A DNA stretch of 64,000 nucleotides from Takakia lepidozioides. Lineage: Eukaryota; Plantae; Bryophyta. The translations under genes and the position numbers were made by a program. The DNA is taken from assembly GCA_030704615.1 (NCBI GenBank), contig CM060733.1, positions 30,628,001-30,692,000 of the forward strand. Reading direction: 5' to 3'. Of the stretch, positions 1-60,606 are shown one piece after another. Position 1 is the stretch's first letter; each line of letters begins with the position of its first letter. A model generated the notes under the pieces. It did no database searches, was not told where the DNA came from, and saw nothing but the letters and a program-made list of their open reading frames with translations.

Positions 1-690
1 AGTGGCAGGTTGGCCCTGCCAAGGGCATTCATCAGCCGGGCATGGCAATGGATTGCGAGACTCGAGGTCGGGTCTGTTTTGGGAGATGGTGCGGGTTTTG
101 CGCCACTTGCAGCTTCATCAAGCTGTATCTCCAGCATACATCTTGGAGAATGTGCCACTGATGGGCGATTCTCGGGCCAGGGTGATGGCCGTGTGCATCA
201 AGTCCGGTCGTGGCTTGGGTCAGCAGTGTTGCTAGATGCAGCTACAGTGGGGTCACGGGCCATCGTCCACGGCTATGGTGGACTAACTTGATGCCACCCG
301 CACTGCTCAAGCGTGCATTTGATGGGTGCAGCGGCCAGCACATCTCACAGTGGATAGCATTCTGGACACAGGGAGGCAGTCTCAGCGTGTGAGACACGAT
401 GACCGTTCGCCTTTGGCAGTGGTCAACAAGGGGGGGTCAACCACGAGCATCATTACCTACACTGCTCAGCTTCCCAGGATCGCATGCTTTCCGGGATAGT
501 GGACCTGGCCTCCTGTGGGATGCTCAGTTGCAGCAGTTAGTGGAGCTAATGCTGACGAGCGTGAGCGGGCAATGGGTTTACCACTGGTACCACGGCGGTG
601 TCGTCTCTTTCTGAGGCATCACGTCGTCAAGTGTTGGGGCAAGCAATGGATCTCAATTGCTTGACCTGGATTATCAGCTTGGCTATGGCT
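1..690 (+). pseudogene. C5-cytosine DNA methyltransferase domain (DNMT3-like, motifs IV-X) inside the retrotransposon polyprotein; frameshifted
   Basis: Read across frames: AGWPCQGHS (motif IV, catalytic PC, 5-31), YILENV (motif VI, ENV 146-154), SRA-HRPRLWWTNL (motif VIII, ~250-290), ADERERAMG (motif IX, ~550-578), RRQVLGQAMD (motif X, 622-651). Motif I would lie upstream of position 1. Confidence 0.88.
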
Positions 691-971
691 GAGCAACGCA
701 GAGTGCGGAGTACACTTCCCTCGATGGTCTCTCTGCCTACCGAGACGGTACAGGCAGTGAGTGGGGGCGAGCATATGAGGACCACGGGGTGCATGCATCC
801 ATGGCACACGTGGGAGGTGCTCGAGGTTCAGAGGGAGTTGGCAGCCAAGGTGACGATGTGAAAGATGAGGTTGGGGATTCTTCTCGGGTTGAGGAGTCCT
901 CAAGGATGAGATGATGGGGCAGGATGAGGCCTTGTCATTGACTGAGCAGGCAGGGAGTACTGCTCAAGAGG

Positions 972-2854
972 TTGCAACATAGCAACCACTGGACGCGTCC
1001 TCTACCTCTAAGCCCACTGGACTTAAGGTTGCAGTTACGGAGGACAATTGGGAGCCTGACATTGGACCATTGTCACGGAGGAGAGAGACGACGTATACGG
1101 CGGTTCCTGAGGGCTTACAGGAATTGCTTTGCCTTCAGTTTGAAGGACTTGGGAGCACTGAAGGGTCAAGAGATCCGTATTGAGTTGGCCACTGACACGC
1201 CAATCTTTCGGAGACCCTATAGATACAGTGACATGGAGAGGTCTTTGATTCAGATGAGGACTCAAGATCTCTGGGAGGCAGGTTTGGTGGAGCTCTCTGG
1301 TGGAGAGTATGCTTCAGCCACAGTGATGCCAGCCAAGAAGGATGTCTATGGCAATTGGACGGAGAGACGTATGTGCGGTGATTACCGGCCTGTAAATCGT
1401 CAGACCAAGTCCGATAAGTATGCCATGCCAACACCAGAGGAGATCTTTGATGCCATCGGGCATGCTAAGGCCTTTAGCACTTTGGATTTACGATCCGGAT
1501 ATCACCAGTTGCCAATCAAGGAGGCGGACAAGCAGAAGACAGCATTCTGGGGGATCAATGAGCACGGCAAGGATTGCCTATATCAGTGGCGGTTCTTACC
1601 ATTTGGGCTTAAGAATGCTCCTGCAGAGTTTCAGAGAGTCATGGATAGGATTCTAGCAGGGGGGACTTTGCTCGGTGCTACATAGATGACATCATCATCT
1701 TTAGTGTTACGATGGAGGAGCATGAGAGACACCTTCAGGTGGTATTGGAGCGCTTGAGAGCGCACGGATTGAAGTTGCATCCGGGGAAGTGCAAGTTTTC
1801 CACAACCAGATTGAGTATCTGGGTCACATGATATATCCTGGAGGATTGGGGGTACAGCAGACTAAGGTAGAGGCCATTGCACAAATTCCACGCCCCACGG
1901 ATGTGAGCCGAGTTCGAGCTTTCATGGGGTTGGCAAACTATTATAGACGGTTTGTCAAGGGATTTAGTACCATTGCAAAGGCTCTAACCAAGCTGACCAA
2001 GGTGGACCAGGAGTGGCAGTGGGAAGATGAGCAGGAACGAGCTTTTCAAGAGCTCAAGGCGAGGTGACCTCGGCGCCTATCTGAGACGACCTATCAGGAG
2101 GCGTCCCTTTCAGCTGCATACGGATTGGAGCATGTTGGGGCTTGGAGCGGTGCTCACACAGGTGGATGATGAGGGAAGAGAGTTCGTAGTGGCTTATGCT
2201 AGCCGCTCGAACAACGCTGCAGAGGCTAAGTACAGCTCATATGAGGGAGAGTGCTTACCTGCAGTGTGGGCCGTGGCACACTTCAGGTGCTATCTATACG
2301 ACAATCTTTTCACCCTTGTCACGGATCACCAACCACTCAAGTGGTTGATGGAGTCAGACAAGCTTACGGGGAAGCTTGCACGGTGGGCACTCATACTCCA
2401 GGAGTATGACTTTCAGGTTGTGCATCGACCAAGTTTGGTCAATCGGGATGCGGATGGATTGAGTCGCAATCCATGCATGAGCCAGCAGGATGACACTCGA
2501 GCTCGGTGGCATGGTGAGACGGACGAGGAGATGGTGCCAGGATGGCACGCATCTGCATTGTGTATCTTGGCATCGAGAGGTCAGGTTGGACCTACAACAG
2601 GAATGACTGTAGACGGAGTGTCTGAGGACCCTGAGGCTAGTGATGAGCCAAGTGGTGCCAGAGATATATATGAGGATTCGGCTGTGTTGGACTACCTCCG
2701 CACGGGAGACACGGCAACCACTGTGACTGCCAGGGAGAGGGATCGGATCCTGCAACGAGCCAAGAGGTTCAAGTGGGAGGGGATACACCTACTTCGAGTG
2801 TGGGAGGATGGTCGGGTGAGGATTGTGCCTCACCCTACACAGTGTGTCTGTTAG
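972..2854 (+). pseudogene. Gypsy reverse transcriptase and RNase H (frameshifted)
   Basis: RMCGDYRPVN, FSTLDLRSGYHQ, LPFGLKNAPAEFQR, YIDD (1679-1690), IEYLGH, FMGLANYYRRFV; RNase H LHTDWS, YASR, YEGEC, LVTDHQPL, LARWAL. Split over ORFs 972-1685, 1789-2067 and 2027-2854. Confidence 0.93.
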
Positions 2855-4107
2855 TGCGGCATGTCCATGAGGAGTTGGGGCATTTTGGAGTGCGACGCAC
2901 TCACAGTTTACTGCAAGGGCAGTATTGGTGGCGTGGTATGCATACAGAGGTGCAACAGTTTGTGGCTAGGTGTATGGTGTGTAACAGGGTGCGTGCTTCA
3001 TTCAACACCCCTACACCACAGTTGCATCCTTTACCAATCATGGGATTGGGCTACAGGTGGAGTCTTGACTTCGCAGGACCGTTGCCACTGACTATGCGCC
3101 ACCACAGATATGTGTTGGTGATGGTGGAGCACTTCTCCAAGTGGATTGAGTTGGTTCCATTGCCTGACAAGGCTAGTGATGGGGCTGCGTATGCATTCTT
3201 GGATCGTGTGCTTAGCCGAGTTGGTGCTCCAGCTGAGGTACTCACGGACCAAGAGAGAGAGTTCTTGGGGGAGTTTCAGGCTTTGTGTGATAAAGCCTTG
3301 ATAGACCACCGCACCACTTCTCGGCATCATCCTGAGGCCGATGGCTTAGCAGAGAGAGTTGTTCAGACGGTGAAGAGGGGTTTGCACAAGTATGGCTTGC
3401 AGAAGGGACACCTAGGAGATTGGGATCTTCAGGTTCCTTGGTTAGCCATGGGCTACAGGTTCAGCAAACAAGCATCACTTGCCTCCTTCTCACCATATTT
3501 CCTTCTCTTTGGCCGAGAGCCGGATTTGCCTGCAGCCATTCGTAGGGACACTGCTCAAGTCCTTAACCTTGACAATCTGGACGTGTGGGTACGTGCATGT
3601 GATCAGCGTGCAGAGTTGTTCAAGAGAGTCATGCCCATGGCTTTTGAGAACCTTGCCATTGCACAACACCGTGATACGTTGAGGTATGCCACTATACGTG
3701 GTGGAGGATATCGTCCTGGGGTTCGGAGGTTTAGCCCTGGTGACTATGTTTATTTGCAGCAGACTATTCCTACGACTCTGGATGTTACTGCAGGGCGTGT
3801 TATTCTGAGGGTTCGAGAGGTGTTGCCCTCAGGGGTCCTGATCTTGGAGGGTCGGGATGGCATGACTTGGAAGGACCATGTGCGTAATTGTGCGCCATGT
3901 CACCTTCCCAATATTGATGGCAGAGTTGACCCAAACTTGACAGTGGTACCTGCAGGTTTGAGGTGCATGCTCTGTGGGTCTGCCAAAGGGGCAGCCACCA
4001 TGCTGGTGTGTGACCGATGCTCAAGGGGTTGGCATATGGGATGCTTGACACCACCTCTTGAGAAGGTTCCTGACGGAGATTGGTTGTGTCCACACTGCTT
4101 GAAATAG
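2773..4107 (+). CDS. Gypsy integrase (HHCC zinc finger, DDE core) with a C-terminal PHD finger
   Basis: HEELGH...CMVC; LDFAG/TDQ/ERVV core; terminal CMLC-x11-CDRC-x4-HMGC-x14-CPHC (C4HC3) at ~3964-4098. Confidence 0.9.
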   Translation: MGGDTPTSSVGGWSGEDCASPYTVCLLVRHVHEELGHFGVRRTHSLLQGQYWWRGMHTEVQQFVARCMVCNRVRASFNTPTPQLHPLPIMGLGYRWSLDFAGPLPLTMRHHRYVLVMVEHFSKWIELVPLPDKASDGAAYAFLDRVLSRVGAPAEVLTDQEREFLGEFQALCDKALIDHRTTSRHHPEADGLAERVVQTVKRGLHKYGLQKGHLGDWDLQVPWLAMGYRFSKQASLASFSPYFLLFGREPDLPAAIRRDTAQVLNLDNLDVWVRACDQRAELFKRVMPMAFENLAIAQHRDTLRYATIRGGGYRPGVRRFSPGDYVYLQQTIPTTLDVTAGRVILRVREVLPSGVLILEGRDGMTWKDHVRNCAPCHLPNIDGRVDPNLTVVPAGLRCMLCGSAKGAATMLVCDRCSRGWHMGCLTPPLEKVPDGDWLCPHCLK

Positions 4108-4367
4108 TGGCAGTGGACATGACTGGAGGCAGCTAACAAGACATGGGAGGCCAAGGTCATAGGAGTCAATACATGAGATCCCAAGCTCAAGTTCACAGGT
4201 TGCAAGATGGCGACTAACGATGGGGCAACTCTTGCACCCGGCCTCTTGATCTATCGAGTTTGAGTGTAGTAGGGATAGTGGTGGAGGACTTAGTGAGGCT
4301 ATGGTCACTATCACAGCTTGTGGCTACCTGGACTTAGAGGGACCTAAGCACCAGCTAGGGGGGCGAT

Positions 4368-5061
4368 TGTGTGGACTAGTGACTGCCATAGTGGGCAGCA
4401 TAGTGGCAGCCTAGTGACTGACTAGTTGTAGCCTAGTGGTTGGACTAGTGGCTGGACTAGTGGTGGACTAGTTGTATACTAGTGTGTGGTGTGCACATGT
4501 GTTGTGTGGTTTTGGACAGCGATGTAGTTGTGTAGCGATATGTATGCGCACGACAGCTGTCAAGTTATTTTACCATTAGTGTGAAACTAGCTAGGAAATA
4601 ACTAGCTTTTACATATTGACATTTGGGATTGGTCCAAGTGTCAATCCAGGGGTCAAGACAGATTTAGGCCCTGGAGTGGTTATCTTCACGGCAAGCGCGG
4701 GAGGCTCATCTTTCTCGAGTTGAGCCTCACCGCGCCTAACTATGGCGCCGTAGTGTGGATTCCCCATGGCGTGGGGTGCACTTGGCTTGACTTGTATTTG
4801 AGTGATGAGGTTATATATGCATGAGTTTATGCTTCAGCTTTGTGAGCTCGCATGAGCTTGTGCTTGTATTCTTCTTCTTTATCATTGTGTGGACTAGTGA
4901 CTGCCATAGTGGGCAGCATAGTGGCAGCCTAGTGACTGACTAGTTGTAGCTTAGTGGTTGGACTAGTGGTGGACTAGTTGTATACTAGTGTGTGGTGTGC
5001 ACATGTGTTGTGTGGTTTTGGACATCGATGTAGTTGTGTAGCGATATGTATGCGCACGACA
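4368..5061 (+). repeat. 3' LTR of the Gypsy element, with ~180-bp direct repeats at both ends (4368-4555 and 4886-5061)
   Basis: Starts TGTGTGG just after the PPT and ends ...CACGACA. The two ACTAGT-rich direct repeats align nearly perfectly. TATA-like TTATATAT at ~4811. Confidence 0.8.
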
Positions 5062-6490
5062 CCATCAACCCCAATGGTATCTCCCTTCGGGTCGGTAGCT
5101 AGAGAAATACCCCACACAAACGAAGACAGCGAGCGAGAAAGAAGCAGTAGCGTGCGCGCGTGAGTGACAAATTCGGGCATTTCGGGCAGTTCCGAAAACG
5201 TTGGCGCGGCAATTTCTATTGGCGTATTTCGGGCGGGCAATCCGGGCAGATTGACGAAATTTGACGACGAAACGTGGCAGCGATGATGTGGCGACGATGA
5301 TGTGGCGACAAAAACGTGGCACTTTGGCACCCTATTCCTGCTCTACGCTAAACTAGCTTCCGACCTTCGGTCATCGCTAGAATTAAAAAGAAACAGATAT
5401 TGGGACAGAGGCTAGTAGTTTTTCCTTTCACTGTAATCAAAGGGGCCTGATTTGTGAGCCTGCCAGGTGTATCTTTAAAAAATAATAATAAATAGATAAA
5501 TCAAATTGTTATATTGTGTTATATTACCTATTTGTTTTTACAATTGGGTGATAAGATGTTATATAAGTAGTGAAAGTCAGTATGATCACTATAGTTAATA
5601 TATTTTGCCAATAAAGTTTGGTTAGTGATTTATCCATGGTTGCTTAAATCACTGAATTGCATGCCACATCATCGTGATTTTCCTTACGGCCACAGATCAC
5701 TGAATGTCCCAAACAACCCTATGACTGAAACCGCTCATGTTTTGTGACCACGGATTCGCACAGTGATTTTGTCTGAATTCACCAGAATTCCTTGGTGACT
5801 TTTCCCAACTGTGTATCAAACCAGTGTAGTTGTTGGGCCACGCGGATGGTCTTGGGTTTATTGACATTTAGGGAGTCGGGATGGCCCCGACTACATTGAG
5901 GAATCACCTCTGCACAATCTTGGGAGTATCCGACAATTGTCCAAGTTGATGATCCAAGCTACAAATTTTCATTGTTTTTCACAAGGAGGCACCACTTCCA
6001 GGCCCCGAAATATATGCATCTGATTCATCCGCCAGTTCCAAGTCAAGACACTTGTCTGGTGATAAGTATACTGTTGCAATGCTCCCTGAACAGAACAAGG
6101 TACCAGATCCTTCATTCCCAGATCTTGTTCCACTATATTTCCCTCAAGGACCCCTATGAGGCTGCTGTTCTCAATAAGCTCAGACACTAGTATTGCCATA
6201 GGAATGCAGGTGAAATTTTGCTGGGGCTGACTATCACTGTTTTGCTCCAGTGTACTGTAGATGGTAGTTTGGAAGTCCGAAGAAAACCTTGATGTAACAG
6301 TTCAGGAAGATTTGAATTTATCAATCTTCATAAATAAAGCGTCAGGCATCTTGGGAAATGGTAGTGTCTGGGAATCACTCTCACTTTTGGGGCTTTCCAC
6401 ATTCTCTTCTACATACCTCTTCAACCAAAGTTCAAACAGTATATACAATATTATTGGTTCCTTCATGCCTCAGTAACTGAATGTCCACAC

Positions 6491-9400
6491 CTACTTCCTC
6501 TTCTTCTGCTTCGGGTTATGTTTCTTCTTGCTTTTCTTAACTTGTTTAGTGGGACCACTGGCTAAAGGTGCCACAGTTGCTTTGCCCATTTGTTCCAATG
6601 GCACTGTGATGTCAGAAGCTTGTAATAGATTCCTCAGCTGCTCTTGCAGCTGCTTTCGATCATCCTCCAATGATTTCTTAAGCTCTCTCACTTGCTCTTG
6701 TAACCAGTTCAGGTCCGCCTTCTTGTGCACTTCACACCTGCAACCGTCCATATAGCCATTTGTAATGGCAAGACAGGTCAGAACAGAACCACATATCTGG
6801 TATCTTTCCAAGGTTGGTCCCACGGCAGAACACCAGCCATCAACTGCTCTGCCAGCTCCATACATGGTTATGGAGTCTTTGAATCCAGTGCAAACCTAGT
6901 GAGACGGATGAGAGTAGAAGACTGTTTCCCTAGTATTCATACCACCACTCCAAGAGCCAGTTGTTTCGCACGCCACATTATGGAACCCAGCCGGAAATGC
7001 CTTAGTGCTGGCTGCGAGGCGATAACAATAAATGATAATGTACTTTACAATCTACTTATGGGGTTGATTTGGTGTTCATGTGAAGGCAGGATTGAAATGG
7101 AGGATGCGAGAGGAGTAAAAGAAATCCTAGAATTATAGGAAGAGACAAGGAACTATATAACATCCATGAGAAGTTCAAAGGGCTTTTGAGATAGAAGACA
7201 AGACTGAAATGAAATGGCACTTAATAACGTCCACAGAAAGCTCAAAGAGCTTATGGGACAAAAGGGAAAAACAAGAAAGAAGAGACAAAGATTAAAATTC
7301 ACTTAGGTCATGTGAGCTCATGGGACACAATAGGAGAAACAGATTGTACTCATAAGACGTTGTTTGCCGTAGCCTTGTGGCCATTGACCCCGTGCCCAGT
7401 TTGAGCGGGAACAAAAGGGACAGAACCTACCTCTGTCAGGGGCTGACGTTGGTAGCAAGACTTACCTTCATATAAAGAATTAATCCGGGTTTTCCAGATA
7501 TCCTCTAGAAATCCCTTCACACAAGCATCAATCTGCTGTGTGTGATTTGACCAAAAACTAGGCCTCAGGAGGGCCTGGGCTTTTGGCTCAGCCTCGAGAC
7601 TTTCAAAGTTGGTAAACAGGGATACAGGCACAATTCCCTTGATAGAGTTGAAGAGAGCGTCTCTTTGGTGAGAGAACCCCGGACAGTGTATCAGAAAATG
7701 AATACTGTCTTCAGATTGCTACCCCACTGCCACTTAAGATCACTTCCTCCCTCTCCTCTGTCATTGAATGCTACCACTGCACATTTGCTGACATTAGCCT
7801 CTAGCCCCCAAAGATTAAAGTATCTCTTCGCGCAATCAATCAACTCCTGGAGATTGGTTGGAGTCTCCCCTATGCCTGCAAAGTCATCCGCAAACATAAG
7901 GGCTGGTATGGTGGTATCACCCACCCTTAACCCAAATCCCTCACTTTCCACATCCTCGAGGAGTTGATTGATAAAAACATTGAAGAGCAGAGGGGAGAGA
8001 GTACATCCTTGAGCTACACCTTGGTCTATGTCAAAGAAGTTGGACTTCTGTCCGTTAACAGTGACACAGTTTTTGGTGTGAGCATACAAGTTGTGGACAA
8101 CTCTCCACATCTTTCCCTTGATCCCACAAGACCAGAGGCGGAACCATAGGCCATCTCTCCACACTGTGTCATAAGCCTTTTTGACATCCAGGAAAATAAC
8201 ATAAGTGGGTTTCCCTTCTTTTTTCCTTCCCTGGATAATCTGGCTTAGAGTGAAGATATGATCCACACAGCCCCTGTTTCGCCGAAAGCCAGCTTGGCCT
8301 TCGTGGAAACAACCTCTAGACTCCAGATCAACCTCGAGACGAGTACTTATAACTCTGCAGAATGTCTTGCCAACAGCATTGAGGAGCGTGATGCCACGGT
8401 AGTTCCCCGGTTCTTCTCTGTCACCCTTCTTGTATAGATTGACAATGACCCCCTGTCGCCAGCGAAAGGGGATAATTTCAGTCTTCCAGATAAGGTTAAA
8501 GAGGAGAACTAGGGCCTCTATCATGGGATCGCCACCGTGCTTGATAAGCTCGTTGACAATACCATCAGGTCCACCAGCTTTATATCCATTTAAATGTTCA
8601 ATTGCTTCCACAATCTCAGAAGAACTAATGGGAGCGTTATAAGCCATTGAAATATACTCCAGTTCATCAGGGCTGTTGTGAATCATAGGAACAGTTTTTC
8701 CAACTGTGTCCCTCCATTCAGCAGAAGACCCCTCACTGTTAGACCTAGAAGTTCTGCCAAGGATACTGTAGTGATTTTCAAAGGTTTTGACAATGTCAAC
8801 CGATGAAGTCACCACTGCACCTTTAGTAGTCTTCAGCGCTTGTACTTGCTGACCGGTTTTAGGCTTGTACAAACGTTGAAGGGCCAACCAGAATTTCTTG
8901 TCATTACCACCATGGTGGTTTGAGTTTATTTCACTGTATAACTTGTCCCAGTATAATTTCTTCTGAGACCTAACAAGCTGATTGATATCTTTACGGAGCT
9001 GGTAGTACCTCACCCACAATTCTCTGTCGGTTTTCAAATTGCAGCACTCTTTAGAAAGGGCTCGTCTCTCAGCTATCTTGAGTTTGATCTCATTGGTCCA
9101 CCAATTAACAGCTCTACCGCAGACAATTAGTTTCCTCCCAATGATCTTGTCAGCCACGGAGGAAACGAAACTCTCCCAAGAGTCCACTGCTCTTTCGACT
9201 TCATTTCTTGCGTTGTCAGAGCGAGACTGAAGTTCTTGGAGCGATTGGACAAAATGAGGGAGAGCCTCTTGCAAGGCCTGGACGTACTCAGCCTTGACCT
9301 CCTCATTATGGAATTTTTCTATGCGCCACTTCCGAATCGAACGTTTCACAGATCTCTTGGTGTTGGGAAAACACCTTTTGATCTCAGTCCAAACCAGGAA

Positions 9401-12400
9401 GTGGTCAGAGGTACCAATATCAGTTCTGTCGATCAACACATTGGCACACTGGGGAAACAAATTTTTGTCCATTATGATATAGTCCACAATGGAACGTTCC
9501 CCAGTTTGGGATTTCTCACGAGTCCACTGCACTTGGTCACCTCTTGTCCTGTTATTCAAGGTCAAAAGCTGAAGCTCTTCCAGACAGTTAATTAACCGTC
9601 TGCCATTAGAATTCAGCTCGTCCTCGCCAAAAGGCCCAATGATATCGTCCTGATGGAGCCCTTTGCCCACCCGGGCATTGAAGTCACCCAATAGCACTAC
9701 CTGACCTTTGGCAAGGAACGAAGCACAGTCCAGCTTTACATCTTCGAAGGCTTTGTCTGCGTCAGCACTAAGGGTCCCCTCTGTGGGCATGTAAACACAA
9801 CCCACAAAGAGGTCCTTCGTACTCATGCCGCCCTTCAGATTCAGTTTTAGCCAGATACTATGCTCGTACCTCAAACCCTTGTTGATAATTTCACAATTAT
9901 CAAACAAGAAATCACGGACAAAGAATCCAACCCCTTTTTGACCCCGTTTGGCAGAGGCTGCCTTGAGAGTACACATCCTACCTGCCCATTTATAACCATT
10001 GACATCTCCAACCAGTTTATCCGATGTTTCCCATGTTTCTTGCCCAGCACAGATATAAATATCATTAGTCCGAAGGACTTGTCCCACTTCGAGTTGTTTC
10101 CTTTGGTTAGTAAGCCCTGAGAAGTTGAAAGTGGCCAGCCGCAAGCCAGCCCTTTGCATGTGAATTGTTTGTCGTCTAGGTAGCTTTTGATTGCTCCTGG
10201 ACGGCGAACCGTTCTGCAAAGGGGGAACAGTTACCCCATGTGTAGATTTTGCTCGTCTTGTGTAGACTTTGAGAATTGGTAAGCCATTCAGGGTACCAAA
10301 TCCTTCGGTTACACGACGCACAGGCTCCGCACACTTAGGGGCATATTGTCCATCAGACTGCTTGGGGAAAATTACCCCGTGTATAGATTTTGCTCGTCTT
10401 GTGTAGACTTTAAGGATTGGTAAACCATTTAGAGTACCAAATCCTTCAGTTACACGACGTTCAGGCTCTGCACACTTAGGGACAGATTGTCCATCTGACG
10501 GCTTGGGGACAATTACCCCGTGTATAGAATTTGTTCGCCTTGTGTAAACCTTGAGGATTGGTAAACCATTCAGAGTACCAAATCCTTCAGATTCAGGACG
10601 TTCAGGTTCTGTACACTTAGGGGCATCTTGTCCTTCTGGCTGTTTGGATTCAACCTCATCCAGAGCATCAAACCGATTAGAAACTCTCAAGTTGAAGTCC
10701 TTGCCCTTGGTTGTCTTCCTAGAGCGCCCCATTGAATCACCAATGTCTAAGACCGCTCTCCAGCCAGTCAAGGGACGAACTTCTTTGAGATTGAATTGAT
10801 GTGGGACTCTATTAGAAGCACTTTTGGACATTGCAACCTTCAACGTACCCCTGTTATCAAGTCTGGAGATGGACACATCGTCCATCCTGGGATTCACCCC
10901 AAAAACTACACATGAAGCCCTAGATTTGGCATAAGTAACCAATTCCCAGGAATCACCCTGGGGAGTGTTGATGTTGATAGGAGCTAAAATATTGATTGAT
11001 CTCGCAGGCTATAAGTTTAAGCACAGGAACCAACCCGAGCCCAAGTGCCGAGTATGCTATACAGAGCATACGACTGCCCAAATTGGGCGGAGGGGCTGCC
11101 CCCAAGCGGTAGGGGTCCGCTTGTTACCATTCAGAGATCACACTCCAGGGAGTTGCAGGGAATGGCCCGTGTAGGCATATTCTAAAGAGGGAAAGGCCCC
11201 AAGCTTTCCAACTAAATCCAATGCACTACCTTACCTGGAGCAAAGCGCTTCAGGTCGAAACAAACAAGGACACGAGGTCACAAGGCCGGCATTTAGTCAC
11301 AGAGACATTAATGTACTCCCGTATCAAGACCACCCAATCGAAATAGGCTTCCTAGAGGACAGAGAGAAACAATAGGAGAAACAGAGAGAAGAATTAACTA
11401 CATCCTTGGGATGCGCAATACAACAGAGAAACCAGGGTTTGGGAGAGGACTCACTTTGCTCGAAGGGAGCGTGTTGCATCCTCCAAGGCATCTTTCTTGT
11501 CACTTATGATATCCAGCAATTCCTCTTCACTTTCAATCTGTTGAGTGTTGCTCTTGATTTGGTCAAGAGCACTGTTCAGCGTCATGAGCCACTCATCCAT
11601 ATTGGCCTGTACACATCAAACCAGGTATTGACTACTAGCCACTTGATGATTTCCATCATACAACAATGATCTGGATGTGAAGTACACTGGACCATGCATC
11701 AAAGAAGAATCCACAGGGGTGTATACCCTTTCTCTCTAGAATCTACACAAGGACTCTGACCTGATGTTCTGGGACAGGGAAGCAGGAGGCCAGGAACAAT
11801 GGAGGACACTTGTCATCACGCAACAAATTGCCATGCAAAATATTTGGCAGTTGCTGATTGACCAAAAATAGTTTCCTGGATGTACTGATGCAACGTCTAC
11901 AATGCACTGGGGAAGCTATGTGAACCAAATTCTAGTATGATTAATCGGGGAATTACTTATGCATAAGTCCAAACATCTCTGGTTTGACTTCATTTGTATC
12001 GAGTCCTGTACCTGCAGGGGGCAAGCCTCAGAAATGAAGGCTTCGACATAACCCTTGTCATTGAGCGCCATTCGTGTGAAGGCTGCACGTGCCTCTCGCT
12101 GGTAGCGCTCTATAGGAGATAAAGGCTCAAGCAGCCTTTGCCTGACATAATGCAGATGACGCTGCAATTGCCGAACAATAAATCCTGCGATGGTTACACC
12201 CTCCTCCAAACTTATGCGATCTGACAATATGATCGATGGAGATATTTCTTCTGGTACATCCATAGCTTGGCTTCCTGCTTCTACAGGTTGAACGTAAGTG
12301 TCAGCAACAACTTAGAAAGAAAGGTCATCATCATGTATCATATCATAGTCTTTGCTTTCACCCCCAATTTGTTGCTGGTTGGTGTGGGGGCTAGCTTATG

Positions 12401-39247: not shown

Positions 39248-39615
39248 TGTTGGAAATCAACTCCTAACCAAGTTACTACTACCTAGAGTTACTGTGATGA
39301 CAAGTCCGGCTTCCATAATAGGAGTTCTGGCAAGTCACAGTTAACAATAGAGATAAGCCTCGGTTAACTAAAAGATAGCTAAAGTTAGTTTCAGTTATTA
39401 GTGACTCAAGTCATTGTACCAAAATAGCAGGTGGAGATAACTTAAGTAAAAGCATGGAGTTATGCTATAGTTATCTCAGCTATTTCTGGATTAGACTTTG
39501 AGTATAAATAGGGAGAGCTCGAGGGTGGACACAGCTTGTTGTGGTCCTATGGTTGGGTGGAGAGTTCTCAGTAATCAGTTCATCTTTTATCTCTATTCTC
39601 TGTCGAATTCCAACA
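39248..39615 (+). repeat. Copia 5' LTR (368 bp)
   Basis: TGTTGGAA...TTCCAACA inverted termini; TATAAATA at ~39503; followed by the PBS. Confidence 0.97.
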
Positions 39616-39677
39616 TGGTATCAGAGCCATTCTTCTCTAGGTGAGAGTTGGTAGTTGAGATTGAGAGAACTTGATTA

Positions 39678-42093
39678 TGGCTGAAGCGTCGTCTTCTAGC
39701 AATCCTCCTTCTATGTCTATGACGAGTGCATTAGATGTGAGAGTGGAAGATCGATTCAATAGAACTAACTATCAAACCTGGAAGTTTAGGATGGAGATGG
39801 TCCTTCTAGACAAAAGATCTATGGGGAGTGGTTGATGGATCAGTCCCAAGACCTGACACTATTGTTGGCCAAGCCATATGGGATATGAAAGATCAGAAAA
39901 CAAGAGCTAGCATCATCACAAGCTTGAGAGACAAACAGTTGCATCTCATTATAAGTGCTAAGAATGCTAAGGATGTTTGGGACAAGCTAGCAAGCATATA
40001 TGAGACGAAGGATGTCACATCGCAAGTGTATGCGATGCAAAAGTTCTATGGTCTGAAGATGACCGAGTCAGACTCAGTTGAACAACACTTGAATTTGTTT
40101 TGTGTGTTGCGAGATCAACTAGTCTCTGTGGGAACTAATGTGACTGATGAACACGCCGCAGTGGTGTTATTGGCAACCTTACCTGAATCCTATGATGGTT
40201 TTGTGGTGTCTCTAGCAGGACAAACCAACTTAATTATTGATGTTGTCATAGGACTTCTTCTCAAGGAGGAAACAAGAAGAAAAGGTCAAGGTACGTCTAC
40301 AGAGGTAGACAGAGCTTTGTTCACAGGCAAGACTGGAGTAGTCTTGAATAGAAGACTCCCTTCACATATGTCTCAGAAGTCCCAGAGGTTTCAGAAACCT
40401 CAATCTAGCTCAAAGATCAAAAAGGCCAAAGTAAGGTGCTTTTATTGCAAGAAACTTGGTCACATGATCAAGGATTGTAGAAAGCGCATTGCAGATGAGC
40501 GCAGCAGAGAGAGTCAAGGAAACATAACTACTCATCAGAGGAATGCTATTATATTTGTTGTGTCTCTCTCAGCCACTACTAGACAGAAGCATGTGTGGTA
40601 TGTTGATTCAGGAGCATCTCAACATATGAGTTCAGAGAGAGAGCATTTCTTATCCTATAGATCTCTTTCACCTACACAATATGTTCTTTTGGGAGATGAT
40701 AGCAAGCATGTCATTGGTAGGGAAGGAAATGATGGTTTGTAAGCTTCTCAAGTCTTTGTATGGTTTGAAGCAATCCCCTAGGGCATGGAATGCTAAGATT
40801 GATGCATATTTCATGGCTGAAGAGTTTGAGAGGAGCTCTGCTAATTATAGTGTTTACTATAAGAGGGCTTATGGAAACTCTTCTGTGATCATAACATTGT
40901 ATGTTGATGATCTGATCTTGGTCTCTAATGACTTGACTCTGTTGAAACACATACAGAGTGTCAATATCTCAAATGAGATTGAGATAGTGGTTATGTGATC
41001 ATAACAAATTGACTTTGTTGAAACAAATGCAAAGTGATATCTCAAAGAGGTTTGAGATGATGGATCTTAAAGAGATCATGTGATCATGTGTTGATCAGGC
41101 TTTGTTGAAAAAGACAAAGCGATATATCAATGAAGTTTGAGATGGTGGATCTGAAAGAGATCCAGTACTGCTTGGGGGTATCGGTAACTTGTGTTCGACA
41201 AGACCGAGCAATTTACCTAAACCAGCGTAAGTATCTTGAAGATATCTTAAGGCGCTTTGGTATGGCTGAAATTATGCCGGTAAATACCCCGTTTGTCCCA
41301 AATCGCAAACTCTCAAAGGAGATGAGTCCTAAGAGTGCTGCAAACTTGGAGACAATGAGAGATGTTCCCTATCAGAGTGTTGTGGGAAGTCTCATGTATG
41401 CTCTGTACTAGGCCAGATATTGCACAAGCAGTGGGGGTTGTAAGCCAATTTGTGGCTAACCCTGGGCAACTCCATCGGGTTGCAGTAAAGCGAATTTTCC
41501 GTTATATAAGAGGCACATTGGACTATGGTTTGTGCTTGAGAAAGAACAATGATAATGTTCAGTTGGATCATGTGGGTTCATATGGTATCTCAGATAGTGC
41601 TTGCAAAAGCACAGAGCTATACGGCTATTGCGATGCAGATTGGGCTGGTAATGTTGATGACTGCCACTCTACATCTGGTTATGTTTTTATGCTAGCAAAT
41701 GGAGCTGTAAGCTGGAGCAGCAAGAAGCAATCTACAATTGTTATGTCCTCGACTGAGGCAGAATATATGGCTGCATCTCAAGCTACAAGGCAAGCATTAT
41801 GGTTATCATCATTTATATCTAGTATTGGTCGTCCACAGAGGGATACAATGGTCATATATGATGACAACCAAGGGTGTATTGCTCTCTCAAAGAATCCAGT
41901 GTTTCATGCTCGCACAAAGCATATTGAGATTCATCAAAATTTGGTACGAGAGAAGACTGAAGCTGGAGTTGTCAAGCTTGTATATTGCAACACCAACAAC
42001 ATGGTTGCAGACATACTGACAAAAGGGCTTAGTGTTGAAAAGCTTGAACGCTTTCGAGGCTTGATGGGAGTAGTTAAGTGCTTAACTTGGTAA
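39678..42093 (+). pseudogene. Copia gag-pol remnant (gag, protease, partial RT, RNase H)
   Basis: Fragments in ORFs 39828-40742, 40681-40998, 41130-41411 and 41362-42093. Protease is joined directly to mid-RT at ~40715. Confidence 0.9.
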
Positions 42094-42108
42094 CTCGTTG
42101 AGTGGGGG

Positions 42109-42492
42109 TGTTGGAAATCAACTCCTAACCAAGTTACTCCTAACCAAGTTACTACTACCTAGAGTTACTGTGATGACAAGTCAGGCTTCCATAATAGGAG
42201 TTCTGGCAAGTCACAGTTAACAATAGAGATAAGCCTCGGTTAACTAAAAGATAGCTAAAGTTAGCTTCAGTTATTAGTGACTCAAGTCATTGTACCAAAA
42301 TAGCAGGTGGAGATAACTTAAGTAAAAGCATGGAGTTATGCTATAGTTATCTCAGCTATTTCTGGATTAGACTTTGAGTATAAATAGGGAGAGCTCGGAG
42401 GGTGGACACAGCTTGTTGTGGTCCTATGGTTGGGTGGAGAGTTCTCAGTAATCAGTTCATCTTTTATCTCTATTCTCTGTCGAATTCCAACA
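42109..42492 (+). repeat. Copia 3' LTR (384 bp)
   Basis: Matches the 5' LTR except for 2 substitutions, a 1-bp indel and a 15-bp tandem duplication. Confidence 0.97.
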
Positions 42493-45480: not shown

Positions 45481-48064
45481 ATGGCAGCCTGCTCGGGTGT
45501 TCTCCTAAGCCCACATGCGGACTCGATACCCAAAGCCCTGCCGTCTCTGTTCAGTCATGCGGGAGGCTGTACATCATGCGGTGGAGTAAGGGGCTGGACT
45601 ATGGAGCCAAAAGCGGCATCTCCCCAGGCGTTCTTTACAGATCCTTCACAATGGTGGGACTACACCGTTCACAAGGTGCGCTTTCTTCATGTAGAAAGTC
45701 ATGAGGGATCCTGTTATAGAGGGAATCTGACTGACTTTGGGGTGATACTACTTTGTGGGATTGGATTCTACCCGTTGAGTTCAGTTAGAATCTCGGTTGT
45801 CCTTCAACAGCTGCGCTTACTGTCAGTGTTGTAAGGATCAAAGGCTGTTTGCCCTGAGCAGGGCATGGAGAGTACGATGCCCGAGGTGTTTTTCATGGAT
45901 TTTGCAATGTCGTTGGGAGGGTTGATGATTGTGGCTCGGTTAATACTGTGGCTGCTCAGCTACACCCTGGTGGTTTTCACAGACCAATCCAAAATCTCCA
46001 GACTGCCTACATAAGCAGTGGACACCAGAGGTCCTGTGGATTGAGGGTTTGTTCAATCCTCCCTGGGTGAAAGAAAAGCTAATTGCCATGACACAAAGTC
46101 AAGAACAATCTGGTGACGGAGGAATATCAGAGTGCGGTTTTGACTCTGGTGAGGAGGGTGAGCTCCTTGGAAGCTTGAAGATGACAGCAAGTGTGACTAC
46201 TTATCTCTCTGTCTTGCAAGAGTGCATTCAGATGAGAAATTTAAGGAAAGGAAAGCAGGTGCATGTCCACATCATCCAAAGCGGCTTCAAGCCAAACAAT
46301 TTTCTTCGCACCACTCTTTTCAAAATGTATGTGAAGTGCGGGGCCGTGGAGGATGCACGGCAAGTGTTCGAGGAAATATCACAACGCAATTTGTTCACTT
46401 GGACTATAATGATATCAGCATATGCCAAGCATGGGTGTGGCAGCGAGGCTTTGGAGCTCTACGAGCAAATGCAGCAGGAAGGGGTGATGGGGGACAAGGT
46501 CACCTGGACTTGTGTTCTTAATGCATGTGCAAGTCTAGCAGCCCTGGAAAAGGGCAAACAAGTGCATGCTGACTTCCTCAAAGCTGGAATTCCACTGGAT
46601 ATCATTCTGGAGACTGCCCTTGTCCACATGTATGCCAAGTGCAAGAGCATGAAGGATGCGCGTGGAGTATTTGACAAAATGGCTGAACGAGATGTGGTCT
46701 CGTGGAGTGCAATGATTGCAGGATATGCTCAGCATGGCTGTGGTCAGGAGGCTTTTGACCTCTATGAGCAAATGATTCAGGAAGGGGTGTTGCCCGATAA
46801 GGTCACATTCATTTGTACTGTCAACGCATGTGCCAGTCTAGGATCCCTAAAAAAGGCTCATGAGATTCATGCTGACATCATTAAAGCCCGAATTGTGCCT
46901 GATATCAGCCTGGAGACTGGCCTTGTTGACATGTATGCCAAATGTGGAAGCATCAAGGATGCACGGCAAGTGTTTAACTACATGGCTCAACGAAATGTGG
47001 TCTCATGGAATGCGATGATCACAGGATATGCTCAGCAAGGGTGTGGTAGAGAGGCTTTCGAGCTGTATGACCAAATGATTCAGGAAGGTATAACACCTGA
47101 CAAGGTCACGTTTGTTTCCGTTGTCAATGCGTGTGCCAGCCTAGGAGCCCTGGAAAAGGGTAGAAAGGTCCATGCCGCCATCAGCAAAAGTAGAGTTGCA
47201 CCAGATATTATTCTGCAGAATACACTTGTTGACATGTATGCAAAATGCGGGAGTGTAAAGGATGCACTTCAAGTGTTTGACAATATCCCTCAACGAGATG
47301 TGGTTTCCTGGAATGCTTTGATCACAGGATATGCTCAGAATGCATGTGATAGGGAGGCTTTAGAGATGTATGACCAGATGAAACGGGAAGGGGTGACTCC
47401 CAACAGAGTCACATTCATTTGCGCTATCGGTGCATGCACCAGTCTGGCAGCCCTTGAGAAGGGCAAAGAGATACATGCTGACATCGTGAAAGCTGGAATT
47501 GCTCAGGACATCATAGTAGAGACTGCCCTTGCTTACATGTATGGCAAATGTGGGAGCATACAGGGTGCACGGGACATTTTCAACAGTATGCCTGAACGAA
47601 ATGTAGTCTCATGGAATGCAATAATTGCAGGATACACTCAGCATGGGTTTGGTAGGGAGGCTCTCCAACTATTTGAACAAATGCAGCAGGAAGGCTTCAA
47701 GCCAGACAATATCACCTTTGTATGTCTTCTTTCTGCATGCAGCCGTGTGGGCTTAGAGGATGAAGGCCATCACTACTTTGATTCCATGAGTCAAGATCAT
47801 GGCCTCACTCCCACAGCAGAGCATTTTGGCTGTATGGTGGACCTTCTTGGCCGCGGAGGGCGATTGAATGAGGCAAAGGACTTGATTAACATAATGCCAA
47901 TTGAGCCGTGTGCTTCGGTGTGGCGATCCTTGCTTGGTGCCTGCAAAATTCATGGGGATGTGAATCTAGCAGAGCATGCTGCAATATGCCTTCTCGAGTT
48001 GGATCCACTGAATGCAGGAATTTATGCTCTGCTATCAAACACCTATGCTGCAGCTGGTACGTAG
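45481..48064 (+). CDS. PLS-class PPR protein (E subgroup, ~758 aa) with an N-terminal OSB-type PDF motif
   Basis: Exon 1 is 45481-45675 (MAACSG...QAFFTDPSQWWDYTVHK). A phase-0 GT-AG intron spans 45676-45982. Exon 2 is 45983-48064 (TNPKSPDCLHK...LWIEGLFNPPWVKEKL, then ~17 P/L/S motifs and E motifs MPIEPCASVWRSLLGACKIHG / YALLSNTYAAAG). The start codon is less certain than the PPR region. Confidence 0.85.
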
Positions 48065-49769: not shown

Positions 49770-51467
49770 CTAGAAACTAAAACATGTGAAGTTTATACTT
49801 CTCGTCCAGGTACCTAACTTCAACTCAGGGACTTGTTCTTTAAAACTAGAGAAATCTGGTTTGCCTGCACTGTCAGAGTGGACATAAATTTCTACAGAAC
49901 GTAAGGAAGGAAGAGTATTAATGAGCATTTGTAAAACTGATAGGCAACTGTCCAGTCTCTGCACAATCATATGGATAATCAGTCTCTCCACTTGAGGTAG
50001 CTTATGCGGTCTAGCCAGTTCCTGGTTGTTTTCCATGTCACATTCCATAGAATGCCATAGTCCAGGACCCACACTAAATGTGTGCAATGAAGGGCATGAC
50101 AGCCCTAAAACTTTCATGTTAGGGAGGGAGAGCGGAACTCCCTTCAAGACTCCCTCAAACCTGCCATCCTCATGCAATGCCATGCAGGGAACATCAAGGA
50201 AGGCTTTCTCGAGCCCCGGATTTGACTTGCTCAGCTCTGAAAGCGTTGAAAAATTATGTGAAGCGCCAAATAAAAGCTCCCGCACATTTTTTACATTGCC
50301 ACCAAACTCCACAGTTGCCTCCTCCTGTTTCTCCATCCCCAGTGCAAGGTGGGCCAGTGAGGGAGTTTCAACTCTGAGTTTCTCTGGGCTTACCATCTTG
50401 AGCTGCAGTTTTACCAAACTGGGTAAGAGTAACGTGATGCTCTTCGACTTGGTCGAGAGGCCTATGCACAGAACCTTAAGATGCTCCCAGTTGAAGTCGA
50501 CCTCCTGTAGCCCAGACACGCCCAAAAGAGCAAGAGTTTGGAGGGCTGGCATGTTCTTACTGATGTCAAGCAGTAAATCATCCTTCATTTTGATGCAGCG
50601 CAATGTGAGGGTCAACATCTGTGGCATCAGTTCCATTACCGCTTCAATTCCATCATTTCCCTTCTTGGCCAGAAACATGTTCCTCAGCTCCAATGTCTTT
50701 AGTCTCTTGCCTGCTCAGGCCCCATCACAATCATTACAAAATCTCCCCAAGAAGAATATGCACAGCACCAGAGATTCACATTCAAATGACTATGTGATAC
50801 ATCATCCATGGTCCTCACCACAGGACCCTGGACCCCTTCTATTAATGGCCAATCAGCAGACGCACGAGACTGACAAGATATCGCGCGGCTCAAACTAGGG
50901 ACAGCACATTCTATTATGTAAGCCCCACAAACAATTGTGGCAAATAAGGAAGAATAGAGGCTCACAATGGGCAGATAGGATTTGGAGAACAGTTGTTGGT
51001 CGCCTGATAGCTTGTGGGCCATAGTCAACAATGCACAAATGCTGCAAAGTGGCTTGCACTGATGGCACCCAATTTTTCACAAACTTTGGCTCACTCAGCC
51101 AGAAGTCTATCACAGTCTTCTCATTTTCTTGGAACATGTGAGATTGCATCTCCTGCTCAATCTCAATCCGTAGTTGCTCAACACACTCTGTTCGCCCCAG
51201 CACATCTTCCACGACCTCCTTGAAAGCTGTATACTCTGGTTCATAATTACCATCATCTTCATCTTCATCCTCGTCTTCATCTGAGTGGGACTGTATGGGG
51301 TGTGCCTTCCTGACAGTCAGATAGTGTCTATACAGGCAAATAAAACGAACACTTTGAGTGCGTCTCCCAGATTGATAGAAGGCCTTGTTCACACAGTTGC
51401 AGCTGGCACGATGGCGGGCATCAGGATTGCGATTCAGGATAAAATCCAGTAAATATGATGGCAATCT
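49770..51467 (-). CDS. F-box/LRR-repeat protein (At4g29420-like family); 5' exon not located
   Basis: Exons 50966-51467 and 49770-50710 join in phase 1 (SAHC|KRLKTLELRN). N-terminal F-box-like RLPSYLLDFIL...ASCNCVNKAF; LRR-like LQHLCI, LKTLEL, LTLTL, LQTLAL, LVKLQL. Confidence 0.8.
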
Positions 51468-54400
51468 CTGCAGGTATGAATTTCCAGCACTTTAGTTCTC
51501 GGTTAGGCAACTTTTAAATCTTTCCCTATAGACCCACTAACAAAGCCTTCAGTCCCTCTTCACAAAGCACCATTCCAAGAAACATGTCTGCTTGTGCCAC
51601 CACCGGGATTAAAGATCAGCAATTAATTAGAAGGGAATGCACAGCCCAAGGACCTTCAATCTCAGAATACACTAGCACATACAAATCACCAATTGCATGA
51701 AAAACTTAACCAAACTAAACCACACTTCCCACTGTCGAACTAGCATGGGATCCAGATCAACACAGAGGCAGTATGACACCACAAGTAGGGCTAAAATTAT
51801 CCTTCCGACTTTTTCCTGTGATGATGTCTTCACTACCATATGCCAGGTTCCCAGTCTTAGCATAGACTACAAACATTATCTCGACCATTTTAGAGCTTCA
51901 CGGAACTGATTACAAATATGATTTGGACTCCTCTCCGAAAGGACTCTGCGATACCAAGCTCTCACTGCTATTTCCTTTGGGAGTGGCTATATCGCTATTA
52001 CCTCAACCAACCCTAGTCGACCCGTGCTGCCTGCTTTTGCATCATTCGCCTGGTAGCCGGTAGAAGCCCACGTCCTCTCCCCCTCCCTCTCTTCAGTCCC
52101 CATCAATGCAGAACCCTCCTTACCAAGTCATTAGACAACAATGCACGGGGTAATAAATTTCCCCACCCCAGGATTGAATGTTACAGCCTTCCACACCCTG
52201 CCAAAGTCCAAAACGCTCAACCCAGTGATCATGACATCGCAAACTAGGGACTCAAGTATGAACCATCCATAGTCAGGCTCGAGTATCCTTCACCTGTAAG
52301 CTACACTAGCCAACAAAATAATAACCAGCAGGCTCCAACACCTGTGGGTCGACCTGGTTTTGTCCCCAGCACCATGGCCAGAAAAACACGCTCATCCATT
52401 CCAAGACAAACACACCACCAGTTCAGGTACTCACAAGTTCCTCTTTGATCCAACCCAGTACTCCTCTCCCCCGCACTCACACACCAGCAAACCAACTGCG
52501 TTTATATTGCTACCGACAATCTCCAAACCGAACTCATCATTCAACTGCCGCTGCATGGACTGAACCTTCCAGCAGGTCCGAAATATCCTGCGAAAGTCAT
52601 TTGAAAAGGGCAATGCTGCACAAACAGTTTTATCCCCACCTAACACCAGCCAAGCTCGAACAAGAACGTTGACAACATTCTAGATGCTCTTTGCTTTGCC
52701 GCCATCGCTGAGCTTCTTCTCGGAAGGCCCAGACCCGGACTTAGGTCGGCACCGGCAGTCGCAAACCACCGCCAGAGACCCCCTCCAAATTCATAGCGCC
52801 AAACGATATGGGATATATCTTCCATCAATTTGTTTTTTTAAAGGAAACCCTGGGAGCAACAGCCCCCATTTCAGCCCCTGGAGGAGGGGGGAAAAATAAC
52901 CCCCTTTCATTTATGGGGCATGGAGGCACACAGGACGAACAACATCCACACAGAACGCCACGAACAATCCACACACACGGCAGGCCAGCGGAGATTGAAC
53001 TTCGAACCACCCAGGCGACACTTCGTGCACTTACCAGCTGAGCTACCAGCCAATGTGCATAGATTGTGGTTGCCGGTATTATTACAAACATAGGCCGCCC
53101 ATAAAATACCTTCCGGGTGGTGGGAAGGCGCGGCAGACCGACCAAAAACAATCAAAATGAAAAAAAAAAGAAAAAAAAAAGTGAAAAAGTCCCTGATATA
53201 TTAATAAACAAAATATATCGTCAGAATAGGCGTGCGTGCGTGCGTGCACTAGGGTTGTTTCAGAGCTCATTCTCATCCACGAGGCCCACGTTTTGTCGTT
53301 CACCGACCTGCTCTAGTAATCCACGTGGGCGGCTTATTCATTCCCCTCTCATCCATCACTCGTCCAGACTCCTACGTGTACATTTTAACTAATTTTTGAG
53401 ATTCTTCTCTTACCGACGACACCTGTCAAGCATATATACGTCGTCTCCATACTGAGTCGGCAGATGCGGGTCTTATTCACTGACAAGTGTCACGTTTTGA
53501 GTATGGTACGGGAAAGGAAGTCTAGTGTCGCTCCCCCGTAAATAGCACAATCAACTAATGAACCAAAAATATATCCCATATTGTTTGCTGGGGATCTCGG
53601 ACTAGGGCAGGGGCGTGGGTCGTGGATCCGTGTGGACCTGCGGGGTGAGATCAGCAAGACACAGGGCTTTGGCAGATCGCGAGGAGACATTGCAGAGCTG
53701 AGTTGTGGAAAGTTCAAAAGTTCCTTGGAACGATGCACAGATGGAGTCTGACTGTGCATGAGCTGTGCTTACTCGTTGTCTAGGTGGACCATTAAGCTAT
53801 GAAGCGCCGACAAAGTATAGGTCAATGACACGGAAGGTGGAGGAGAAAGAGCGAAGTGGGTGGGACTGGGTGCAGGCTGCGTTTTAAATAGGCAAATCTT
53901 CCGGATGTGAACCAGCTTCGAGCATCGGAGTTTCGTGAGCAGGATCACAAGCTTGAGCAGCTGTTACAGTTTTCTAGGCTACTGTAGCAGTTGACCAGCT
54001 CACCGTCTCAAGGCCCCATCCCACTCTGTACCAGTACTTCACCAAGCCCTGCTGCTGCTCCCGCATACTCCTGCAGCAGCCATAGCCACAACCACTCCTA
54101 AGTTGCTTCTCACAATAGTAGAACTATCTAGAAAGGCAACTAGATAGTATTTGGCTATATCTAGTTGCAGAACTATCTAAAAACTAAAAATGTCAACTAA
54201 TGAACTCCCATACCAAATGGCTATACCTATGTGTAATCTGGAAAGTCAACTTGGTGTGAACTCGAAATGGTTATACCTCTACACCCTATATTCCCAGGAT
54301 CTCAAGGGTACTCAATTTCACACAGGTTCAACACACAGAAATTTCTATCCACAATCGGAAACCGCAGTTTAGATATGTGATTCACTTTTCAGCTACCCTT

Positions 54401-59482: not shown

Positions 59483-60606
59483 TCAGAACCAAGAGTGTTT
59501 TTTGTGATGACGACCTTCCGGGCCATTGTACTCTTCTTCAGCTTTACGGTACTTGTTCGACTCGTGATGCTCATAGAGGGCATATCCTCCGAGCCCAAGT
59601 GCTGCTGCCTCGGCAACCTCAGCCTCCACTTTGTGCTGGCGCGCATGTGCTGGATCCACTTTTTCCTCATGTTTTTCATACTGTTCACAGACAACCATCC
59701 ACTTTCATGTGTTAGACGTCTGATCTCCTTGAAATGATGAAAGACTAGCTCACACAATCTTCTGATCATTCAAGTTACAGTACGCTGATTTAGAGAACTG
59801 CTAAACTTGTTATTGGGAAGTATCTCATTCATCTCTTATGCTTCAGCTTAAATAGCTCAAGTGCTTTCACAATGAAGGTCCTAGTCCTGAACACTCGATC
59901 ATTTGCGTGTACAAGTATCGAAAAGCACGAATGTTCAAGTAAAGCCCAAGTGAATTTTTTCTTTAAGTTACTTTGCCAGATGCACCACCTACAAGTGGTG
60001 CTTATCTTGCCGAATTTCTTTAAGGCAACCTCGCTTATCTCTCCAGCAAGTTTCTGATGTACCTTACAGTGATCACTGGATGACCGGAAAGGTTTTCAAA
60101 CTCTTGATCTTCGTTTTGTACTCTTTAAGTCAATCAGTAAGTGTCCGGTATAATTCAAGACAGGTCAGACAGTACTTACTCCGCCATGACAAATTTACCA
60201 TGTAATCTTTCAATACTAGATCTATGCTTCGGGAAGGAAGAGATCTAACCATGGCGAAAGCTCCAGCAGCTAAGACACCCATTTCAGCCGTGTGTTCGCG
60301 GTTCTTGTGCTTATGCTCCTCCCGTTGCAGATATTCATACTGTTGTACGCGCTGCTCTTCTTGGTAGATGGCAGGCGCGCCATACCCATCCTGATAAGGG
60401 GAGTTCTCATAGGTCCCATACCCGCCATTTCCGTAGGAAGACTGACCGACATTAGGAACCGCCGGAGGGTAGCCATAAGAAGGCTGGATTTCGTAACCAC
60501 TCTCTTGGCCATAGCCATATGCAGGCGGAGGAGGCGCATAGCCGTACGGTGCTTCTTCGTAGCGTTCTTCATGGTGATGATGGTGGTGGTGGTTATGGTG
60601 AGACAT
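59483..60606 (-). CDS. ASR: ABA/stress/ripening-induced (ASR, ABA/WDS domain) protein, 184 aa
   Basis: Exons 60250-60606 and 59483-59680, phase-0 intron. Signature EEHKHKNREHTAEMGVLAAGAFAM|YEKHEEKVDPAHARQHKVEAEVAEAAALGLGGYALYEHHE; His-rich termini. Confidence 0.93.

Follow-up and report, generated by a model that had tools for sequence, protein, structure and literature searches.

The first 5061 nucleotides of the window (the whole 64,000-nucleotide stretch of Takakia lepidozioides DNA that was analyzed) make up the 3′ portion of a Ty3/Gypsy retrotransposon that occurs in multiple copies. Its domains follow the order cytosine methyltransferase (DNMT), reverse transcriptase (RT), RNase H (RH), integrase (IN), and PHD finger. 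In the clade to which this copy belongs, a conserved in-frame stop codon separates DNMT from RT, and the element ends in split repeats with a palindromic junction. Elements of this kind are known and rare; what is new here is the placement of the in-frame stop and the split ends with their palindromic junction. We lean slightly toward the explanation that combines the observed architecture with an active enzyme in intact copies and readthrough of the stop.

Organization of the element

The features of the element are collected in Table 1. Similarity to RT begins at about 1113, some 420 bp past 690, and the stop-to-stop RT ORF begins at 942; these values correct the spacing of about 300 bp between DNMT and the RT ORF given in an earlier note on this DNA.

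Table 1. Features of the retrotransposon at the start of the window
Feature	Position	Strand	Evidence
DNMT3-like C5-cytosine methyltransferase, motifs IV–X, six frame changes; N-terminal part upstream of window	2–690	+	PF00145 E 3.5e-11; 73–75% identity of 2–190 to P0001/P0002; DNMT3A-like fold predicted for intact relative
Linker at the C-terminal end of the Gag-PR-DNMT ORF, two frame breaks	691–979	+	ORF1 proteins of relatives end 93–163 aa past motif X start
Conserved in-frame amber stop, readthrough-type context TAG CAA CCA (UAG-CAR-YYA)	980–988	+	Sole internal stop in 1293 codons; invariant at 5% depth; stop at same junction in relatives
Reverse transcriptase, YIDD present, several frame breaks	1080–2061	+	PF00078 E 4e-14 and 2e-12
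RNase H	2084–2545	+	PF17917 E 7e-35
Integrase, zinc finger and D-D-E core	2851–3930	+	PF17921 and PF00665
C-terminal PHD finger and final stop	3964–4107	+	PF00628 E 1.7e-10
Polypurine-tract-like run immediately 5′ of repeat B1	4357–4365	+	G-run at same place in 8/8 relatives with B1 start shown
Repeat B1, 3′ end GACA	4366–4555	+	98–99% identity to B2 except 12-nt indel
Palindrome GACA-GC-TGTC joining the 3′ terminus through 2 bp to the 5′ terminus	4552–4561	.	Exact in L001, L037, L052, and L054; six others differ by C>T or G>A
Repeat A, internal copy, begins TGTCA	4558–4883	+	Second A copy predicted at element 5′ end upstream of window
Repeat B2; element terminus CA at 5060–5061	4884–5061	+	Repeat comparison; contig depth collapse after about 5050
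Predicted 4-bp target-site duplication CCAT	5062–5065	+	Analogy with 5/6 complete relatives

The window copy has about 15 small frame breaks and zero nonsense changes; 24 of 25 long loci among the matches listed carry 2–20 stops per 1000 codons. The copy may be young, and its frame breaks may stem from assembly errors left uncorrected in repetitive sequence. Of 13 breaks, 8 touch homopolymer runs of at least 2 (background 56%) and 4 touch runs of at least 3 (background 14%), which is not decisive.

Relatives were collected by a metagenome scan with protease and DNMT patterns, so that DNMT-less relatives could not appear. The best 80 matches gave at least 69 loci, including 7 near-identical pairs.

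A conserved stop between DNMT and RT

In frames matching those of intact relatives, the TAG at 980–982 is the only internal stop. Comparison with other copies, which differ from the window by single bases, places it in phase with both DNMT and RT. In four runs, no variant reached 5% of depth at 980–988, whereas positions 977 and 990 vary.

To follow the junction in relatives, we used 30 Sphagnum-type loci, picked among the matches listed for covering it; they represent one subfamily and include duplicates. Their junction codon is TAG in 18, TAA in 11, and TAC in one, giving a stop in 29 of these 30 listed loci, and CAA follows it in all 30. The full CARYYA is present in only one, the others matching five of the six bases; nearly all of these others read CAA CCC and then ATG, 6 nt after the stop, an arrangement that fits reinitiation too. 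At the same junction L042 has TAA CAA CCA. In L028 a lone TAG CAG TTA lies between a gag-PR-DNMT frame of 1369 aa and an RT-RH-IN-PHD frame of 1047 aa, both open, and L031 has the same stop context. The window, L028, and L031 all fit UAG-CAR-YYA, the type I readthrough motif known from tobamoviruses, and the window context is an exact match to that consensus as set out in the accessible text of PMC3542737. On a quick RT tree the stop-bearing elements form one clade (starred, support 99). A third subfamily, 18 of 49 loci among the matches listed, has DNMT and RT in one ORF with no stop, so the stop is unnecessary for the wider family.

The earlier note had predicted a single ORF running from gag through PR, DNMT, RT, RH, and IN to PHD. 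We rejected such a continuous ORF for the window's clade because of the conserved in-frame stop. A private CAG-to-TAG decay of the window copy was also rejected, given its invariance across runs and the stops at the junctions of relatives. A search of four sequences for a conserved RNA structure after the stop found none (z of +0.65, −2.0, −0.09, and −0.73).

From the codon context and its conservation, we consider it quite likely that RT-RH-IN-PHD is produced by occasional readthrough of UAG-CAA-CCA, with Gag-PR-DNMT made every time. Given readthrough, every round of translation that yields Gag would also yield protease and methyltransferase, and RT and integrase would be rare products; with the DNMT upstream of the stop, the enzyme would thus be present in Gag-like amounts. 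The position of the stop suggests a need for many copies of the methyltransferase in each particle.

With the same architecture, Pol could instead come from a spliced mRNA that lacks the stop, from reinitiation, or from a transcript of its own, and we judge this unlikely. Splicing has a parallel in Ogre elements, which have a spliced gag-pro/pol split, and the Marchantia gene models P0013, P0014, and P0062 do skip the stop region; however, each of the three skips at a different place, which is the behavior expected of predicted introns. One contig from run X12 (guessed to be RNA) crosses 780–1180 with no skip, which is weak evidence against splicing. Reinitiation would suit the ATG of the Sphagnum-type copies, but the window (which has CTG), L028, and L031 have no such ATG and yet keep CAR-YY. 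Moreover, in unbroken loci the stop and the downstream frame are in phase, which speaks against this alternative.

Readthrough at a gag-pol boundary would have precedents, since in-frame gag-pol stops occur in fission-yeast Gypsy elements. In Tj1, Tosmo1-3, and Tcry1 a single in-frame stop sets the Gag:Pol ratio, as proposed here; there the stop lies between Gag and protease, whereas in the window's family protease and methyltransferase both precede it (accessible text of 10.1101/2022.12.06.519325).

The methyltransferase domain

The earlier note had recognized five C5-methyltransferase motifs in canonical order on one strand, and we confirmed them on the + strand: IV (GWPCQGHS) at 8–31 with its Cys at 17–19, VI (ENV) at 146–154, VIII (HRPRLWWTNL) at 261–290, IX (ERERAMG) at 557–577, and X (RQVLGQAM) at 625–648. 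The PF00145 match covers 2–235 and scores 43.6 bits against a cut-off of 22. The motifs lie in different frames, spread over seven frame segments; the domain is broken at about 190, 260, 323, 433, 545, and 576. Motifs I–III lie upstream of the window; in close relatives the SAM-binding motif I is LFGG or LFAG.

Comparisons with solved enzymes were made with the unbroken domain of a relative, L001, rather than with the broken window copy. By phmmer it matched DNMT3A with an E value of 1.5e-11, versus 4e-4 for M.HhaI and 1e-3 for 4onj. An AlphaFold model of this domain (pLDDT 88.3, pTM 0.89) had DNMT3A/B/C structures as its top Foldseek matches (E 7e-20, TM 0.69–0.81, 22% identity). By its motif order and these comparisons the window's DNMT is non-permuted and DNMT3-related, not a DRM, as first proposed from its motifs. 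The further suggestion that the element had captured the enzyme of this host is unsupported; the domain is old, being common to elements of Klebsormidium, Closterium, and Cymbomonas.

Between the near-intact relatives L028 and L031, dN/dS was 0.13 for DNMT and 0.05 for RT. The corresponding values for L001 and L003 were 0.69 and 0.65, as expected of decayed copies; between the window and L003, pN was 0.18 and pS was saturated. Judged from such substitution ratios, purifying selection acts on the element's DNMT.

In the window's clade the catalytic Cys, ENV, RxR, and SAM-binding motif I are retained, and intact copies are probably catalytically active. We put at about even odds the further step that the protease would free the DNMT inside the particle, where the cDNA would be marked before integration, so that a new copy would arrive methylated.

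The domain might instead be kept for a non-catalytic job, such as cDNA or RNA binding or shielding from host enzymes, or might act on the chromatin of the insertion site and not on cDNA; we regard this alternative as improbable. Several relatives, some of them distant, carry variants of motifs IV and VI (ECQ for PCQ, ENT or EHV for ENV), and bulk synthesis with Gag would suit a coating role. No CpG or CWG footprint of self-methylation was found in the element, whose CpG value (0.51, vs 0.46 for the rest of the window) is not more depleted, which counts against a self-methylating activity. Expression of the Klebsormidium domain in yeast produced no methylation, an outcome described by its authors as inconclusive (accessible text of PMC5890265). 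Against a non-catalytic role stand the retained catalytic residues and motif I, together with a fold that is predicted to be complete.

The DNMT belongs to the element

Of 25 candidates obtained with the first 63 DNMT codons as the query, 11 were homologues, and a retropepsin lies upstream in some of them; the DNMT region of P0002 gave 45 longer and 71 similar-sized proteins. Named homologues come from Marchantia polymorpha, Calypogeia fissa, three Sphagnum species, Klebsormidium nitens (KFL_009030040), Closterium, and Cymbomonas. Family copies are annotated as hypothetical genes in M. polymorpha (Mp4g09160, Mp8g17980, Mp5g06330, MpVg00370, and others). One member of this plant element family, P0074, carries the annotation DNA cytosine methyltransferase and is assigned to a bacterial MAG (Obscuribacterales). 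The match between its C-terminus and L031 makes mis-binning probable.

Among the matches listed, DNMT is followed by RT in 50 of the 69 loci and, after an RT deletion, by integrase in 3; of the remainder, 11 end first, the C-terminal part is missing in 4, and a single locus is unexplained, the only such case among the 54 listed loci with room for a downstream RT. A protease lies upstream of DNMT in 57 of the 69 listed loci. The gag assignment in relatives is based on zinc-knuckle matches and on sub-threshold PF03732 matches (E 0.005–0.008). Single proteins, including Klebsormidium KFL_009030040, carry DNMT, RT, and IN together, and 16 of the 45 long homologues, as well as Marchantia and Calypogeia proteins, stop after DNMT with no RT. 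In run X1 of the window's organism, the summed contig depth was 17–28 thousand over DNMT, 19–47 thousand over pol, and below 500 after 5050; this depth is not a copy number and was read as "highly repeated" only. A 2173-nt contig spanning 607–2771 links DNMT with pol.

On quick trees with no host or bacterial outgroups, the DNMT of the window grouped with Marchantia, Calypogeia, and Sphagnum sequences (support 99; element domains only), and its RT grouped with Marchantia and Sphagnum-type sequences and L028 (support 99).

We conclude, in agreement with the earlier note, that the DNMT is part of a Gypsy element; none of the outcomes that the note had named as refuting was encountered. A fragment of a host DNMT3 gene beside an ordinary Gypsy insertion, which might be entertained because the 5′ end of the window copy is outside the window, is highly improbable and was rejected in view of the colinear PR-DNMT-RT order in dozens of the listed loci and in single proteins, the repeat-level depth over DNMT, the lack of a terminal repeat between DNMT and RT, and the placement of the window with the same relatives by both trees.

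Two other arrangements were observed. In L020, L035, and L036 the RT-RNase H region is deleted and the DNMT side is joined to integrase; these are possibly non-autonomous derivatives that keep Gag-PR-DNMT. In 16 of the 45 proteins (P0033, P0036–P0040, and P0042–P0051), which form a second Gypsy-PHD clade and group with a Cymbomonas protein, the same DNMT3-like domain lies between RNase H and integrase. The two locations, before RT and between RNase H and integrase, indicate that the domain has moved within Pol.

Element ends and integration

Two ordinary LTRs are absent, and split repeats are present instead. After the purine run, the order is B1, GC, A, and B2. The complete arrangement A-coding-B-A-B was found in L033, L037, L046, L051, and L058, and the 5′ copy of A is present in these five and in L001 and L064. 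For the window's own element, two contigs of run X12 connect position 4558 to other DNA; a doubled depth of repeat A was clear only in run X1 and absent in X2. Complete relatives start with TGTCA and end with CA (GACA in 5 of 6). Five of the six are flanked by 4-bp target duplications, as expected of a DDE integrase, with L051 mismatched; the window shows the CA end only. Inspection of four loci by eye showed no TGG-type tRNA primer-binding site following the 5′ repeat, no tRNA genes were found in the window, and no permuted insertions, as from a circle cut at the other junction, were seen in complete loci.

The internal GACA-GC-TGTC junction could be the template that regenerates both ends and is cut by integrase, an interpretation we advance tentatively. 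In its simplest form, the transcript would lack both ends, the junction would be copied to rebuild them, and an integrase cut would produce termini with CA-3′. Cleavage of palindromic LTR-LTR junctions is reported for the integrase of foamy virus (accessible text of PMC1180852); in both systems two ends meet in a palindrome that integrase may use as a substrate, and the window's junction differs in being permanent and internal and in having a 2-bp spacer.

The best solved matches of the PHD finger were those of CHD4, KDM5B, PHF12, and KDM5A, and it also resembles the finger of PHF21A. The PHD fingers of CHD4, KDM5, and PHF21A are readers of unmethylated H3K4. By this resemblance, the element's finger might read unmethylated H3K4 and steer insertion, which is conceivable but somewhat doubtful.

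Taken as a whole, the joint reading would be a land-plant Gypsy clade with an active DNMT3-like enzyme, made at capsid stoichiometry by way of a leaky stop and packaged; the cDNA would be methylated in the particle and inserted in pre-methylated form with the help of an H3K4me0-reading PHD finger, and the ends would be rebuilt with no tRNA primer from an integrase-cut palindromic junction. That all of these parts hold together is rather unlikely. If they did, the many intact-looking ORF1 genes of M. polymorpha would be hidden enzymes that could add to the host methylome upon derepression of the element.

Relation to known elements

The closest known system is KnitGypsy-Dnmt3 of Klebsormidium nitens, a Gypsy element with a Dnmt3 domain (de Mendoza et al. 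2018, PMC5890265, of which part of the text was available for this comparison). Both have Gypsy domains, an intronless, non-permuted Dnmt3-related domain under purifying selection, and DIRS-like repeats in the order A-coding-B-A-B. The Klebsormidium protein KFL_009030040 has the same order, DNMT-RT-RH-IN, and shares 42% identity with the L001 domain. In KnitGypsy-Dnmt3, however, the DNMT is in the Pol ORF with RT, whereas in the window's clade the conserved stop leaves it together with Gag and PR. The window's family also has a land-plant host and appears far more repeated; its junction palindrome and 4-bp duplications are unmentioned for KnitGypsy-Dnmt3 in the accessible text of PMC5890265.

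Other retrotransposon-borne cytosine methyltransferases represent independent captures. SymbioDIRS-Dnmt3 and SymbioLINE-Dnmt belong to other element classes (tyrosine recombinase and LINE, respectively); SymbioDIRS-Dnmt3 methylates CG de novo in yeast, and methylation of cDNA was proposed by the authors mainly for the DIRS case (PMC5890265, same portion). EpiLTRs of Cymbomonas and Euglena carry a DNMT4-sister domain with DAM and a chromodomain (10.64898/2026.05.21.726589, accessible text). Gypsy-DNMT3 elements are mentioned in passing in the available portions of PMC12344493 and 10.64898/2026.05.21.726589, where "streptophytes (Gypsy-DNMT3)" may cover more than Klebsormidium.

The accessible text of PMC10952607, 10.1101/2021.11.30.470311, 10.1101/2022.06.16.496473, and PMC3441728 contained no land-plant case; a Chlamydomonas paper among these describes PHD fingers in green-algal Gypsy elements. 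The bryophyte literature, in the portions available, lists MET1, CMT, DRM, DNMT3, and an N4 enzyme as methyltransferases and does not mention element-borne DNMTs. Our search covered mostly open-access literature, without supplementary figures in the case of PMC5890265 and PMC12344493, and found no report of this land-plant family, of its stop, or of three Marchantia gene ids. The earlier note knew of no characterized land-plant family; close relatives exist, unnamed, in Marchantia, Calypogeia, and Sphagnum. The question of why a retrotransposon keeps an enzyme of the class that silences it dates from 2018 and has stayed open in part because the algae that supply the known cases are hard to manipulate; the many copies in the model plant M. 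polymorpha make it testable.

Neighboring features in the window

About 100 bp past the end of the element, a different short repeat occupies 5160–5400; depth rises at 5237–5423, with many loose ends in run X12. A LINE at 7691–11008 (−) has a 1105-codon open frame with endonuclease and RT, and three 141-nt repeats at 10223–10645 precede it. Two large helicase genes in tandem, with AAA_11 and UvrD-type domains, lie at about 12500–38900 (−); they are about 75–85% alike, and the second looks rearranged or decayed. A Copia element at 39260–42397 (+) has 262-nt LTRs that are 99% identical and a broken, shortened pol.

Two intronless PLS-type PPR genes at 45944–48064 and 62159–64000 (+), the first with an E motif, contain 303-nt repeats and are likely organellar RNA-editing factors. 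An ABA/WDS (ASR-like) gene is located at 60130–60645 (−). PLS-type PPR proteins with an E motif and ABA/WDS proteins are land-plant families and point to such a host; the relatives of a neighboring F-box/LRR gene make a bryophyte likely. The At4g29420-like F-box/LRR gene at 49770–51491 (−) has its closest named relatives in Marchantia, Physcomitrium, Sphagnum, and Riccia, with 39–46% identity (10 of 80 matches).
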